Sequence record: NC_054922.1
Origin: Escherichia phage vB_EcoM_KAW1E185
DNA: 64,000 nucleotides
Reading direction: 5' to 3' (one strand)
The translations under genes were made by a program, and so were the position numbers. Positions 53,401 through 60,017 of the stretch are shown piece after piece; within the stretch, counting starts at the first letter, position 1, and the number at the start of each line of letters is the position of its first letter. The notes beneath the pieces were generated by a model that had not been told where the DNA came from, did not search any database, and saw only the letters and a program-made list of their open reading frames with translations.

Positions 53401-54305
53401 TTGGTGATGAAACGTCTAATCACTTTTATTCTCAACGTAATAAAGCTGGGAATATAACGTTTAGTATCAATGGTACTGTAATGCCAATAAATGTTAATGC
53501 TTCGGGTTCTTTGAACGCGGGCGGCGTTGCAACATTTGGTAGTTCAGTTACAGCCAATGGTGAATTCATCAGCAAGTCTGCAAATGCTTTCAGAGCAATA
53601 AATGGCGACTATGGATTCTTTATTCGCAATGATGCTGCTAACACCTATTTTATGCTTACTGCATCGGGTGATCAGACTGGTGGATTTAATGGATTACGTC
53701 CTTTAGCTATTAATAATGCATCTGGTCAAGTAACGATTGGTGAAAGCTTAATCATTGCCAAAGGTGCTACTATAAATTCAGGTGGTTTAACTGTTAACTC
53801 GAGAATTCGTTCTCAGGGTACTAAAACCGCTGATTTATACACCCGTGCACCGACATCTGATACTGTAGGATTCTGGTCAATTGACATTAATGATTCAGCC
53901 ACTTATAATCAGTTCCCAGGTTATTTTAAAATGGTTGAAAAAACTAATGAAGTGACTGGACTTCCATACTTAGAACGCGGTGAAGAAGTTAAATCTCCTG
54001 GTACATTGACTCAGTTTGGTAACACACTTGACTCGCTTTACCAAGATTGGATTACTTATCCAACAACTCCAGAAGCGCGTACCACTCGCTGGACACGTAC
54101 ATGGCAGAAAACCAAAAACTCTTGGTCAAGTTTTGTTCAGGTATTTGACGGAGGTAACCCTCCTCAACCATCTGACATCGGTGCTTTACCATCTGATAAT
54201 GCTACAATGGGCAATCTTACTATTCGTGATTTCTTACGAATTGGTAATGTTCGCATTATTCCTGACCCAGTGAATAAAACTGTTAAATTTGAATGGGTTG
54301 AATAA
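50436..54305 (+). CDS. 34: long tail fibre proximal subunit gp34
   Basis: 1289 aa, T4 gp34 length; GGAG RBS. Confidence 0.95.
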   Translation: MAEIKRKFRAEDGLDAGGDKIINVALADRAVGTDGVNVDYLIQENTVQQYDPTRGYLKDFVIIYDNRFWAAINDIPKPAGAFNSGRWRALRTDANWITVSSGSYQLKSGEAISVNTAAGNDITFTLPSTPIGGDTIVLQDIGGKPGVNQVLIVAPVQSIVNFRGEQVRSVLMTHPKSQLVLIFSNRLWQMYVADYSREAVVVTPANTYQAQSNDFIVRRFTSAAPINIKLPRFANHGDIINFVDLDKLNPLYHTIVTTYDETTSVQEDGTHSIEGRTSIDGFLMYDDNEKLWRLFDGDSKARLRIITTNSNIRPNEEVMVFGANNGTTQTIELQLPTNISVGDTVKISMNYMRKGQTVKIKAAGEDKIASSVQLLQFPKRSEYPPEAEWVTVQELVFNGETNYVPVLQLAYIEDSDGKYWVVQQNVPTVERVDSLNDSTRARLGVIALATQAQANADLENSPQKELAITPETLANRTATETRRGIARIATTAQVNQDTTFSFADDIIITPKKLNERTATETRRGVAEIATQQETNAGTDDTTIITPKKLQARQGSESLSGIVTFVSTAGATPASSRELNGTNVYNKNTNNLVVSPKALDQYKATPTQQGAVILAVESEVIAGQSQEGWANAVVTPETLHKKTSTDGRIGLIEIATQSEVNTGTDYTRAVTPKTLNDRKATESLSGIAEIATQVEFDAGVDDTRISTPLKIKTRFNSTDRTSVVALSGLVESGTLWDHYTLNILEANETQRGTLRVATQVEAAAGTLDNVLITPKKLLGTKSTEAQEGVIKVATQSETVTGTSANTAVSPKNLKWIVQSEPTWAATTAIRGFVKTSSGSITFVGNDTVGSTQSLELYEKNSYAVSPYELNRVLANYLPLKAKAADTNLLDGLDSSQFIRRDIAQTVNGSLTLTQQTNLSAPLVSSSTATFGGSVSANSTLTISNTGTATRLIFEKGPQTGTNPVQTMTIRVWGNQFGGGSDTTRSTVFEVGDETSNHFYSQRNKAGNITFSINGTVMPINVNASGSLNAGGVATFGSSVTANGEFISKSANAFRAINGDYGFFIRNDAANTYFMLTASGDQTGGFNGLRPLAINNASGQVTIGESLIIAKGATINSGGLTVNSRIRSQGTKTADLYTRAPTSDTVGFWSIDINDSATYNQFPGYFKMVEKTNEVTGLPYLERGEEVKSPGTLTQFGNTLDSLYQDWITYPTTPEARTTRWTRTWQKTKNSWSSFVQVFDGGNPPQPSDIGALPSDNATMGNLTIRDFLRIGNVRIIPDPVNKTVKFEWVE

Positions 54306-56165: not shown

Positions 56166-59100
56166 ATGGCTACTTTAAAACAAATACAATTTAAAAGAAG
56201 CAAAACCGCAGGTGCACGTCCTGCTGCTTCAGTATTAGCCGAAGGTGAATTGGCTATAAACTTAAAAGATAGAACAATTTTTACTAAAGATGACACAGGA
56301 AATATCATCGATTTAAGCATTTCTACTGGCGGTAATATCAGTGGTAATATCACTCAAACTGGTGATTATACACAGACTGGAAAATTTAATTTAATTGGTC
56401 CGCAAATTGTAGCAAGCGGTGGATATATTGAGTTTAATTATCGTACTACTGGAAGTGGGGCTTGGTCCGGTCAACATACTGCGAAAGCTCCAATTTTTGT
56501 AGATTTAAGCTCAGCTACTTCCACATCTGAATATAATCCTATAATTAAACAGCGCTTTAAAGATGGAACTTTTTCATTAGGTACTTTAGTTTCTGAAGGT
56601 TCGTTGAAGATTCATTATATCAATGAATCTGGCGATTCGAAATATTGGACGTTTCGACGTGACGGCGGATTTACTGTTGACGGTGGAGGTTTAGCAGTAT
56701 CAGGAGGTAGTATAACTACATCTGGAAATATCGCAGCTATTGGAAATATTACTTCGCCTCAGATTAATACTAAAAATATTATTTTAGATACAAAAGCATT
56801 TGGACAATACGATTCGCAATCATTAGTTCAATATGTTTATCCTGGAACAGGCGAAGAAAATGGTATAAACTATCTTCGTAAAGTTCGAGCTAAATCAGGC
56901 GGTACAATTTATCATGAATTAGCTTCTGCGCAAACCGGAAAAAGTGATGAACTTTCTTGGTGGACTGGTAATACAGCCGTTAATAAACAAATGGGTCTTC
57001 GTAATGATGGGGCTTTAGTATTACGACGCTCACTCGCAATTGGTACAATTACAACAGATGAAAACATTAATAACTACGGCTCCGCTGGAGCAATGGGCGA
57101 ATGTTATATAGTTATCGGTGATGCATCAACAGGCTTATCATACAAAAAAACTGGAGTATATGATTTAGTTGCTAGTGGTCTTTCTTTAGCATCTATTACT
57201 CCTGATAGTTTCCGTAGTACCCGTAAAGCGATTTTTGGTCGTTCCGAGGACCAAGGTACAACATGGATTATGCCTGGAACCAACGCCGCGTTTTTATCGG
57301 TTCAAACACAAGCTGATGAAAACACTGCTGGAGACGGCCAGACGCATATTGGCTATAACTCAGGCGGAAAAATGAACCACTATTTCCGTGGTAAAGGCAA
57401 AACTAATATTAATACTCAAGAAGGCATGGAAGTTAACCCGGGTATTTTGAAATTGGTAACTGGCTCTAATAATGTAATGTTTTATGCTGATGGCGGTATT
57501 ACATCTGTTAAGCAGCTTTCAATATATAATGGCATATATTTAGCAGCTAATAATTCTACTGCTGGGCTAACATTCGCTCCAACTACTACAATTGATGGTA
57601 CTAAGCAAATTTTGTGGGAAGGCGGTACTCGTGCTGGGCAGAATAAAAGCTATGTAACTGTTAAAGCATGGGGTAATTCATTTAACGCATCTGGCGATCG
57701 TAATCGTGAAACGGTTTTTGAAGTAGCTGATGGACAAGGATATTATTTTTATTCACAGCGTGTGGCTCCAAGTGGCTCTGAAACTACTGGGCCTGTTGTA
57801 ACCCAGTTCAATGGACAAGTTAATGCTAGAGGAAGTATTATTACTGACGGAAGTTTTAAAGTTAATGGATTAAGCACTTTAGTCGGTAATGTTACCATGT
57901 CTAATGGTTTGTTTGTCCAAGGTGGTTCTTCTATTACTGGACAAGTAAAAATTGGTGGAACTGTTGATGCATTAAGAATTTGGAATGCCGAATACGGTGC
58001 TATTTTCCGTCGCTCAGAAACAGCATTACATATTATCCCGACTCCTAAAGATGCCGGTGAAAGTGGTGGAATAAGTAATCTCCGCCCACTTAGTATTAGC
58101 CTTAATAATGGTATGGTGCAAATGCGTCATTCCGTTACATTAGGTGATGATGGTGCAGGCGGTAATATGGTGACGGTTGATAATGATTCTAAAGTTATGG
58201 TAATGACGACTAATAGCCGTATTAGTCCTAACTTCCGTATGCAAATTGGACGGTCGTCTTATATTGATGTGGAATGTACTGATGCTGTGAGACCTGCTGG
58301 AGCCGGTTCTTTTGCTTCACAGAATAACGAAAACGTTCGCGCTCCGTTCTATATGAATATTGATAGAACAGATACAAGCACTTATGTTCCTATTGTGAAA
58401 CAAAGATACGTTCAAAATAATAGTTGCTATTCTATTGGTACTTTAATTAATGGTGGTAACTTTAGAGTTCATTATCATGAAGGCGGAGACGGCGTTTCTA
58501 CTGGTGCTATTATAAAGGATCTTGGATGGGAATTTAATAAAAACGGTGATTTTTATTCTCCTGGTAAATTAGGCGCTGGAAATATTAGAATAGGTACTGA
58601 TGGTAATATTACTGGCGGAACTGGTAACTTTGCTAACTTGAACACAACTATCGAATCATTAAAAACCGATATTGTATCGAGTTACCCAATCGGTGCTCCT
58701 ATTCCATGGCCAACGGATACTCCTCCTGACGGTTACGCTATTATGGAAGGCCAGACTTTTGATAAGTCTGCATACCCAAAATTGGCTATGGCTTACCCAT
58801 CTGGCGTAATTCCAGATATGCGCGGGCAAACTATTAAAGGTAAACCAAGTGGTCGAGCTGTATTAAGCGCAGAAGCCGATGGTGTTAAGGCTCATAGCCA
58901 TAGTGCATCGGCTTCAAGTACTGACTTGGGTACTAAAACTACGTCGAGTTTTGATTATGGTACTAAGACGACAAGTAGCTTTGACTATGGCACTAAGACT
59001 AGCAATACCACAGGTAACCACTCTCATACTGTAAGCGGTACTACGAGTTCTGCTGGTGCACACCAACATGCGCGCTCAGGTCCTCAGATACAAGCCGGCA

Positions 59101-59438
59101 TACCCAATAACATATTCTATGACGGATATAATAGTGTAGGTGCAAACGCCAACGCTAAATTCACTGGAACCGTGAACGGTGCTACTGTAGGGTCGAATAT
59201 AGCCAAAACTTCTTCAGACGGTGCTCATACTCATACTTGGTCTGGTACTACAAGCACTACAGGTAACCATGCTCACACAGTAGGTATTGGTGCTCATACC
59301 CATACTGTAGGTATCGGTGCTCATACCCACACGGTAGCAATTGGCTCGCATGGTCATACTATCACTGTAAATAGTACAGGTAATACAGAAAACACGGTTA
59401 AAAACATTGCTTTTAACTATATCGTTCGTTTAGCATAA
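56166..59438 (+). CDS. 37: long tail fibre distal subunit gp37 (receptor-binding tip)
   Basis: 1090 aa (T4 gp37 about 1026); C-terminal His-box repeats; ends [11 protein letters not shown] as recalled for T4. Confidence 0.93.
58929..59003 (+). repeat. tandem 30-bp coding repeat in gene 37 ([10 protein letters not shown] x2.5)
   Basis: Two 30-bp units encode identical peptides but differ at about 9 synonymous positions. Confidence 0.85.
59280..59360 (+). repeat. tandem 27-bp His-box repeats in gene 37 (VGIGAHTHT x3)
   Basis: Three consecutive 27-bp units; further HxH motifs upstream. Confidence 0.85.
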
Positions 59439-59465
59439 GGAGAGGGGCTTCGGCCCCTTCTGAAT
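59437..59465 (+). promoter_or_regulatory. gene 38 translation initiation region with hairpin between SD and AUG
   Basis: AAGGAG at 59437-59442, hairpin GGGGCTTCGGCCCC at 59444-59457, ATG at 59466. Confidence 0.55.
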
Positions 59466-60017
59466 ATGAAAATATATCATTATTATTTTGACACTAAAGA
59501 ATTTTACAAAGAAGAAAATTACAAACCGGTTAAAGGACTCGGTCTTCCTGCTCATTCAACAATTAAAAAACCTTTAGAACCTAAAGAAGGATACGCAGTT
59601 GTATTTGATGAACGTACTCAAGATTGGATTTATGAAGAAGACCATCGCGGCAAACGAGCATGGACTTTTAATAAAGAAGAAATTTTTATAAGTGACATTG
59701 GAAGCCCGGTTGGTATAACCTTTGATGAGCCCGGCGAATTTGATATATGGACTGATGACGGTTGGAAAGAAGACGAAACATATAAACGCGTTTTAATTCG
59801 CAATAGAAAAATTGAAGAATTATACAAAGAATTCCAAGTTTTAAATAATATGATTGAAGCTTCTGTCGCGAATAAAAAGGAAAAATTCTATTATAAAAAC
59901 CTTAAGCGGTTCTTTGCTCTTTTAGAAAAGCATGAGCATTTAGGTGGTGAATTCCCTTCATGGCCTGAAAAAGAACGGAAACCTTGGTATAAGCGTTTAT
60001 TCAAGCATTACGTATAA
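59466..60017 (+). CDS. 38: tail fibre assembly chaperone gp38 (T4-type)
   Basis: 183 aa, T4-type gp38 length; MKIYHYYFDTKEFYKEENYKP matches recalled T4 gp38. Confidence 0.9.
   Translation: MKIYHYYFDTKEFYKEENYKPVKGLGLPAHSTIKKPLEPKEGYAVVFDERTQDWIYEEDHRGKRAWTFNKEEIFISDIGSPVGITFDEPGEFDIWTDDGWKEDETYKRVLIRNRKIEELYKEFQVLNNMIEASVANKKEKFYYKNLKRFFALLEKHEHLGGEFPSWPEKERKPWYKRLFKHYV

Follow-up and report, generated by a model that had tools for sequence, protein, structure and literature searches.

The gp37 receptor-binding tip of Escherichia phage vB_EcoM_KAW1E185: a probable TuIb allele of the T4-type adhesin with a matched extra needle module and predicted OmpC use

Among the tips of T4-type long tail fibres, the C-terminal part of T4 gp37 has a solved structure (PDB 2XGF, Bartual et al. 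2010), and the statements made here on this structure are taken from later papers describing that work. The needle of T4 is six-stranded and doubles back at the head, and Fe is coordinated along it by seven di-histidine motifs (PMC12609058; PMC11705849). Residues 932-965, the equivalent of the head, are the specificity region (PMC9659904), and the T4 mutations concerning OmpC and LPS map to 938-955 (PMC5221442). The protein receptor of T4 is OmpC, and B-type LPS is also usable (PMC8594841). In phages of the T2/T6 type, gp38 has about 260 aa with glycine-rich motifs and is a separate adhesin that caps a cleaved gp37 (PMC3157838). Further gp37 C-termini have been described for the phages TuIb (X55191; Montag, Hashemolhosseini and Henning 1990, J Mol Biol 216:327) and TuIa (X55190), the receptor of the former being listed as OmpC/LamB by a secondary source and that of the latter being reported as OmpF (PMC9659904). 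For the BASEL phages FelixPlatter (Bas40), FriedrichZschokke (Bas41), AndreasVesalius (Bas42) and AdolfPortmann (Bas44), OmpC was determined experimentally as the primary receptor (PMC8594841 S5 table), and complementation was shown for the dependence of Bas40 on ompC (PMC8594841). The tail fibre tip of vB_EcoM_KAW1E185, encoded in the window, a stretch of 64,000 nucleotides of the record NC_054922.1, is here compared with these systems.

Gene 37 and its chaperone

Gene 37 (56166..59438, + strand), which encodes the distal subunit of the long tail fibre together with a C-terminal adhesin, is an ORF of 1090 aa as opposed to 1026 aa for T4 gp37 (NC_000866 156542-159622), and the difference of 64 aa, which the initial annotation had given, is thereby confirmed. 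The protein is 67% identical to T4 gp37 and 97% identical to gp37 of phage teqhad, and over its full length the gene has 96% DNA identity with about 14 GenBank Tequatrovirus records. The extra length had been assigned to the tip and repeat region, which in the alignment with T4 holds for 37 of the 64 residues if the tip is taken as the part aligned to 2XGF: a 10-aa unit ([10 protein letters not shown]), insertions of 15 and 3 aa in the head region, and one VGIGAHTHT unit of 9 aa. Upstream of the tip lie the remaining 27 residues (net), with a net gain of 16 within residues ~55-200 and of 11 around residues 651-661. The T4-like character noted for gp36, gp38 and the very C-terminus is borne out by the alignments: gp36 is 91% identical to its T4 counterpart, and the final 43 residues of gp37 are shared with T4 without any change.

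Gene 38 (59466..60017, + strand) encodes a tail-fibre assembly chaperone of the T4 type with 183 aa, of which 182 are identical in T4 gp38 (99.5%) and all 183 in TuIb gp38, so that the proposed retention of a T4-type chaperone was correct. The gp38 of T4 and of the BASEL records is annotated as an assembly protein or chaperonin, and the order gp37-gp38-holin is the same in teqhad and the BASEL relatives as here. A separate adhesin of the T2/T6 type is ruled out, since gp38 has 183 aa and is 99.5% identical to the T4 chaperone, and gp37 has its own adhesin domain. Its sequence marks gene 37 as one of the T4 type, in which the adhesin forms the C-terminal part of gp37 itself.

Architecture of the tip and its His-box array

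The receptor-binding tip, consisting of collar, needle and head (residues 813-1090; 58602..59435, + strand), was delimited by a phmmer match to the T4 gp37 tip in PDB 2XGF (E = 3.6e-94, query 813-1090, chain 2-242). The two tips are 76% identical with 37 gap columns, the collar and the needle flanks being identical or nearly so. The phage tail collar domain (Pfam PF07484; residues 843-890; 58692..58835, + strand) precedes the needle and scored 43.9 bits, the cut-off being 24 (E = 2.2e-11). The outgoing (ascending) needle strand (residues 910-968; 58893..59069, + strand) was recognised by its homology to T4 883-931, its direction following the account of the T4 structure in PMC12609058, and carries HxH motifs at 910, 952 and 966. 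Within it lie three 30-bp/10-aa units ([30 protein letters not shown]; 58920..59009, + strand), which were identified with Tandem Repeats Finder (period 30, 2.7 copies, 58922-59001) and by the alignment with T4, where only two such units and accordingly a 10-aa gap are found. The receptor-contacting head between HxH 966 and HxH 1021 (residues 969-1020; 59070..59225, + strand), delimited by the same alignment, has 52 aa compared with 34 in T4 (+15 and +3 aa) and shows little identity to it. The returning (descending) strand (residues 1021-1064; 59226..59357, + strand) was defined by the HxH positions 1021, 1035, 1044, 1053 and 1062, which are spaced by 14, 9, 9 and 9 residues as opposed to 14, 9 and 9 in T4. 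The conserved C-terminal tail (...[15 protein letters not shown]; residues 1065-1090; 59358..59435, + strand) is identical to that of T4 and largely invariant among 58 family members.

At least six HxH motifs had been reported for the last about 130 residues, and exactly six were counted in residues 959-1090 (the last 132; 59040-59438), namely 966 HQH, 1021 HTH, 1035 HAH, 1044 HTH, 1053 HTH and 1062 HGH. Two further motifs, 910 HSH and 952 HSH, lie just upstream of residue 959, which gives eight in the whole tip. All 16 histidines of the tip belong to HxH pairs. The number of motifs far exceeds chance, since in 20000 shuffles of the 278-aa tip HxH occurred 0.86 times on average and at most 5 times. 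Regarding the three tandem 27-bp VGIGAHTHT units of the initial annotation, the tandem 27-bp array as such was recovered from the unit DNA and by Tandem Repeats Finder (59280..59360, + strand; period 27 bp, 2.4 copies, 59274-59337), but only two units are exact (59280-59306 and 59307-59333), with three synonymous base differences between them, and the third (59334-59360) is a diverged copy, VAIGSHGHT. T4 has one VGIGAHTHT and one VAIGSHGHT, so the array is one unit longer here. The complete HxH spacing of 42, 14, 55, 14, 9, 9 and 9 residues fits the pattern of the family (32/42/52, 14, head, 14, 9...) in 233 relatives. T4 follows the same spacing rules with seven HxH motifs, two 10-aa units and two 9-residue gaps, as opposed to eight, three and three in the tip described here.

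By analogy with 2XGF, three chains would form the collar and a six-stranded needle, each chain running to a small head and returning, and each HxH motif, present once in every chain, would place six histidines around one axial iron ion as in T4. The eight HxH motifs predict eight metal sites, compared with the seven of T4. Receptor contact would be made by the head, and the choice of the receptor would be determined there. The extra VGIGAHTHT unit of the returning strand presumably pairs with the extra 10-aa unit of the outgoing strand, which would make the needle longer by one module; metal binding and needle lengthening are both suggested by the likeness to T4. The adjacent T4-type chaperone gp38 would be needed for folding. 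An AlphaFold2 monomer model of the 278-aa tip, built from a 58-sequence alignment, had a mean pLDDT of 58 and a pTM of 0.29, with confident values for the collar only (pLDDT about 75-84). Because of this low confidence, and because the tip is an intertwined trimer of which one chain was folded, the model was left out of the work on the strand register.

The tip allele and the coupling of unit numbers in relatives

The closest long-described tip is that of TuIb, which is 98.1% identical over 267 aa without gaps and has the same eight HxH motifs, two VGIGAHTHT units, three 10-aa units and head length. Of the five amino acid differences, four fall in the head (I/F, S/T, S/N, A/V) and the fifth close to where the tip begins, and 14 of the 799 compared bases differ. 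Among more recent isolates, gene 37 DNA is 92-96% identical in teqhad, Ozark, R5505, Bas40, Bas41, Bas44 and Bas42, and the ungapped identity over the last 267 aa amounts to 99.3% for teqhad, Bas41 and Bas44, 98.9% for Bas40 and 97.8% for Bas42. Of the 399 bases of 59040-59438, all but one agree with teqhad, Bas40, Bas41 and Bas44, and the DNA of 59189-59438 is identical in these four phages and TuIb, with one further difference at 59190 in Bas42. The head (969-1020) differs from those of TuIb, Bas40, Bas41 and Bas44 by one to four substitutions without gaps. Compared with teqhad and the BASEL relatives, A1008V and T827S occur in this phage only. The C-terminus of TuIa likewise has eight HxH motifs with equal spacings over 267 aa without gaps, but its identity is 87.3% and the substitutions are concentrated in the head. 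Matches to the tip with an identity of at least 95% are present in about 31 phage records of GenBank. The tip allele, the His boxes, the chaperone and the receptor class are already known from the literature and from dozens of GenBank phages. The genome of the window represents a separate isolate, as the rest of it reaches only about 96-97% identity with the best-matching GenBank records.

The numbers of needle units were surveyed in 233 relatives, comprising 116 complete tips from representatives at 50% identity and 117 closer homologues. A search of 5.8 billion proteins yielded mostly tips of prophage side-tail-fibres and no full-length T-even gp37, and served for this architecture survey only. 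Among the 116 representatives, a first HxH gap of 32 residues went with two terminal 9-residue gaps in 77 cases, one of 41 or 42 with three in 34 cases and one of 52 with four in four cases, besides one degenerate case. The 14-residue modules before and after the head were paired as (0,0) in 61 and (1,1) in 55 cases with zero mismatches; the coupling was equal in the 117 closer homologues. Since the surveyed sequences are related by descent, these counts stand for lineages rather than independent events, and the choice of representatives at 50% identity reduces this effect of kinship, although it is still present. With the three-unit layout in 34 of the 116 representatives, a needle with one extra module is a common state in the gp37-tip family. 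As the number of 9-aa returning units equals that of 10-aa outgoing units throughout the 233 relatives, the apparent expansion amounts to one matched needle module. The extra His unit of the gp37 tip is half of one matched pair. We tentatively suggest that the family follows a strict grammar, possibly one that has gone unstated, in which each 9-residue HxH returning unit would be accompanied by a 10-residue His-free outgoing unit (2/2, 3/3, 4/4) and the 14-residue HxH modules would be equal in number before and after the head (0/0, 1/1, 2/2). Such a matched-module rule accounts for the numbers of the His units and of the upstream FDYGTK units changing together.

Receptor use and alternative readings

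We regard the region, with a probability of about 0.9, as the C-terminal receptor-binding tip of a T4-type gp37 that carries the TuIb allele with a matched extra module and is predicted to use OmpC. OmpC is predicted as the primary receptor because the head is essentially identical to the heads of OmpC-dependent phages; the receptor data come from these BASEL relatives, the phage itself being known by its sequence, and OmpC use, which it would share with T4, is accordingly ascribed to it by analogy. The usable receptor range is probably narrower than that of T4, since Bas40 and Bas41, which bear the same type of tip, do not lyse the OmpC-less E. coli B strain REL606, whereas T4 can use B-type LPS.

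The initial annotation had proposed instead that the enlarged tip and repeat array confer a receptor other than that of T4 while the T4 chaperone is kept. This could be reconciled with a head that is 18 aa longer than that of T4 and barely alignable, and with the failure of Bas40 and Bas41 on REL606. Moreover, OmpF is the reported receptor of TuIa, whose tip has equal architecture and 87% identity, with the differences grouped in the head, so that head changes in this tip scaffold can switch the receptor. However, tips with 97.8-99.3% identity to the present one use OmpC, which is T4's own protein receptor, and the listing of TuIb as OmpC/LamB points in the same direction. In addition, the expansion of the His units is located in the structural needle, outside the receptor-contacting head, and the three-unit needle is common to surveyed relatives whose heads diverge widely (head gaps of 33-58 residues), which argues against a link between repeat number and specificity. 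An altered specificity is therefore unlikely, and the protein receptor is taken to be unchanged. A shift within the OmpC-binding type, for instance in the OmpC alleles accepted or in the tolerance of LPS, could be caused by A1008V (base 59188), which lies in the head, is found neither in TuIb nor in the BASEL phages that depend on OmpC, and is the sole difference from teqhad, Bas40, Bas41 and Bas44 in 59040-59438. Single head substitutions in T4 do change the use of OmpC or LPS (PMC5221442). Val is likewise present in TuIa at the position aligned with 1008. On the other hand, Ala to Val is a conservative exchange, and such an effect appears unlikely.

It must also be considered that the extra units arose by recent slippage in this isolate, or are an artefact of assembling short tandem repeats, because tandem units of 27 bp and 30 bp are prone to slippage and unequal crossing-over. 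Duplications in the tip region of T4 gene 37 were reportedly selected in the laboratory (Tetart et al. 1996, J Mol Biol 258:726, as cited in PMC3157838). The identity of 59189-59438 in TuIb, sequenced in 1990, and in the independent isolates teqhad, Bas40, Bas41 and Bas44 refutes a recent origin, and the probability left for it is close to nil. The about 31 matching GenBank records and the frequency of the three-unit layout among the representatives also speak against it. The three synonymous differences between the two VGIGAHTHT units indicate that the duplication is old.

In the reading as a TuIb allele, the array represents a metal-binding needle of the kind usual in T4-like tips and carries little weight as a discovery. 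For annotation, OmpC dependence of the phage can be predicted, and failure on OmpC-less E. coli B is probable. The only point of broader use is the matched-module rule, which could guide the engineering of fibre length: if it is true, viable changes in needle length would require two coordinated duplications, and if it has also not been stated before, the grammar would provide a design rule for longer or shorter fibre needles.

Tail-fibre cluster and the extra length of gp37

The window contains a full T4-type long-tail-fibre cluster, comprising gp34 (1289 aa, 95.4% identical to T4), gp35 (98.9%), gp36 (221 aa, 91.0%), gp37 (56166-59438, + strand, 1090 aa), gp38 (59466-60017, + strand, 183 aa, 99.5%) and the t holin (97.7%). 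gp37 is 62-67% identical to T4, the figure varying with the treatment of gap columns, and its shaft is far more diverged than its neighbours. Since these retain 91-99.5% identity, the cluster has its mosaic hot spot in gp37. In the backbone (20000-44000), identity to the best-matching GenBank phages (slur02/04, Ge15, FelixPlatter) is only about 96.7%. Overall, the window is that of a Tequatrovirus with approximately 96-97% identity to the best records and is identical to no record in the collection searched; it therefore represents a separate isolate with a known tip allele.

The strand opposite gp37 and gp38 has no ORFs of at least 80 aa. An 85-aa ORF with a TTG start (54016-54273, + strand), which overlaps the 3' end of gene 34 in a different frame, has most likely arisen by chance. 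The gp37-gp38 intergenic region contains, directly 3' of an AAGGAG Shine-Dalgarno-like sequence, a tetraloop hairpin, GGGGC-UUCG-GCCCC (59444-59457; -15.8 kcal/mol, z = -2.5), which is kept in T4, TuIa and TuIb with minor differences.

The 64 residues by which gp37 was initially annotated as longer than its T4 counterpart are exact (1090 vs 1026 aa). They had been assigned to the tip, but alignment with T4 gp37 and the T4 tip structure (2XGF) places only 37 of the 64 there, a little over half. These comprise an extra 10-aa unit (+10), two insertions in the head, which separates HxH motifs three and four (+15 and +3), and a VGIGAHTHT unit (+9). The net 27 others lie upstream, with net +16 in the poorly conserved residues ~55-200 (56330-56770) and net +11 around residues 651-661 (58116-58148), an 11-aa insertion relative to T4. 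The N-terminal third of gp37 is barely alignable with T4.

HxH array and identity of the tip

The region 59040-59438 encodes gp37 residues 959-1090 and contains six HxH motifs; counting the two that precede them (residues 910 and 952), the tip has eight as opposed to seven in T4. The 278-aa tip has 16 histidines, every one of which belongs to an HxH pair, and 20000 shuffles of the tip gave a mean of 0.86 HxH and a maximum of five. The array is real and non-random. Tandem Repeats Finder reported a 27-bp period with 2.4 copies (59274-59337) and a 30-bp period with 2.7 copies (58922-59001). The 27-bp units are indeed tandem, but instead of three identical VGIGAHTHT repeats they encode two exact ones and one diverged VAIGSHGHT. 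T4 has one exact and one diverged unit, so that the array is one unit larger here. In the adhesin genes of T-even phages, recombination and duplication are known to occur at short conserved motifs (PMC3157838, citing Tetart et al., 1996, 1998). Three synonymous bases distinguish the two exact units, and the same units are present in a sequence from 1990 and in many isolates, which rules out a slippage event or artefact in this genome and indicates that the duplication is old and fixed.

The T4 tip consists of a collar, a needle of six strands and a small head; each chain turns back on itself at the head, which is the part in contact with the receptor (PMC12609058). Its specificity region comprises residues 932-965 (PMC9659904), and mutations affecting the use of OmpC or LPS fall at residues 938-955 (PMC5221442). 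Mapped onto gp37 by homology and inference, the collar would correspond to residues 843-890 (PF07484), the outgoing strand to 910-968 (HxH at 910, 952 and 966), the head to 969-1020 (52 aa vs 34 in T4) and the returning strand to 1021-1064 (HxH at 1021, 1035, 1044, 1053 and 1062), followed by a conserved tail (1065-1090) identical to T4. The T4-type anatomy proposed in the initial annotation, with T4-like gp36 and gp38, is right. Eight HxH layers would provide eight predicted axial metal sites. An AF2 monomer model of the tip, folded as a single chain, gave a mean pLDDT of 58 and a pTM of 0.29, with the collar alone confident.

The tip DNA is 98.1% identical to X55191, gene 37/38 of phage TuIb, whose source is listed in PMC9659904 and PMC5221442 as Montag, Hashemolhosseini and Henning (1990). 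For the C-terminal 267 residues, protein identity is 99.3% to teqhad, FriedrichZschokke (Bas41) and AdolfPortmann (Bas44), 98.9% to FelixPlatter (Bas40), 98.1% to TuIb, 97.8% to AndreasVesalius (Bas42) and 87.3% to TuIa, all without gaps, and 76.1% to T4 with 37 gap columns. Across the 399 bases of 59040-59438, the sole difference from teqhad, Bas40, Bas41 and Bas44 is T instead of C at 59188 (A1008V, in the head); the corresponding TuIa residue is likewise Val. These four phages and TuIb share exactly the same DNA from 59189 through the stop codon. TuIa and TuIb already display the layout of eight HxH with two VGIGAHTHT units, and the tip has matches of at least 95% DNA identity in about 31 phage records in GenBank. 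The feature is an ordinary needle of a T4-type fibre tip, predicted to bind iron by homology to T4, in the TuIb allele, first known in 1990 and common among Tequatroviruses that have been sequenced. As such, it is already known.

Matched modules of the needle

The first two HxH of the outgoing strand are separated by a gap of 42 residues (32 in T4), and the returning strand has three terminal 9-residue gaps (two in T4). Among 127 parsable tips from 120 homologues (word-indexed search) and nine reference tips, gaps of 32, 42 and 52 were paired with two, three and four 9-residue gaps without exception, and 14-residue HxH modules were in every case equally numerous before and after the head (0/0, 1/1 or 2/2). 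An exhaustive, far less redundant search of 50%-identity representatives yielded 116 complete tips: 77 paired 32 with two, 34 paired 41/42 with three four paired 52 with four, and one further tip was degenerate, having lost an HxH; modules of 14 residues were 0/0 in 61 and 1/1 in 55, with zero mismatches. This coupling identifies the extra VGIGAHTHT as the returning-strand half of one module, whose outgoing-strand half is the extra 10-aa unit. Together, both halves would make each needle strand ~9-10 residues longer and provide one more metal site. In the Bas63 cryo-EM paper, HxH number was suggested to scale with needle length (PMC12609058); the strict matched-module grammar is the only element here that is modestly new.

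Needles with three modules are common, occurring in 34 of 116 representatives and in 56 of 117 closer homologues. HxH number usually ranges from four to eight; eight, found in 9 of 116 representatives, is the upper end of this range, and the maximum seen was ten. Longer needles occur in the surveyed proteins P0073 (nine HxH), P0055 (ten HxH, each strand having two modules of 14 residues), P0184, P0194, P0199 and P0238, some of which pair four 10-aa units with four 9-residue gaps. The matches of the word-indexed search mostly bear source names of genome records of E. coli, Shigella and Enterobacter and not of T-even phages. Since relatives with equal needle length have head gaps of 33-58 residues, repeat number does not track receptor specificity.

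Predicted receptor

TuIb reportedly takes its name from outer membrane protein Ib, which is OmpC (Datta, Arden and Henning, 1977). For Bas40, Bas41, Bas42 and Bas44, OmpC has been established by experiment as the primary receptor, and the ompC dependence of Bas40 was complemented (PMC8594841, S5 table for the receptors); PMC9659904 lists OmpC/LamB for TuIb and OmpF for TuIa. Because the near-identical tips of the four Bas phages use T4's receptor, the new specificity suggested initially is unsupported as regards the protein receptor, and OmpC is the best prediction for this phage. T4 has a fallback receptor, the B-type LPS core (PMC8594841, PMC5221442), and Bas40 and Bas41 do not lyse E. coli B REL606, a strain without OmpC. 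By analogy, the functional difference from T4 is likely narrower than a new protein receptor, namely that the phage would not use E. coli B lacking OmpC.
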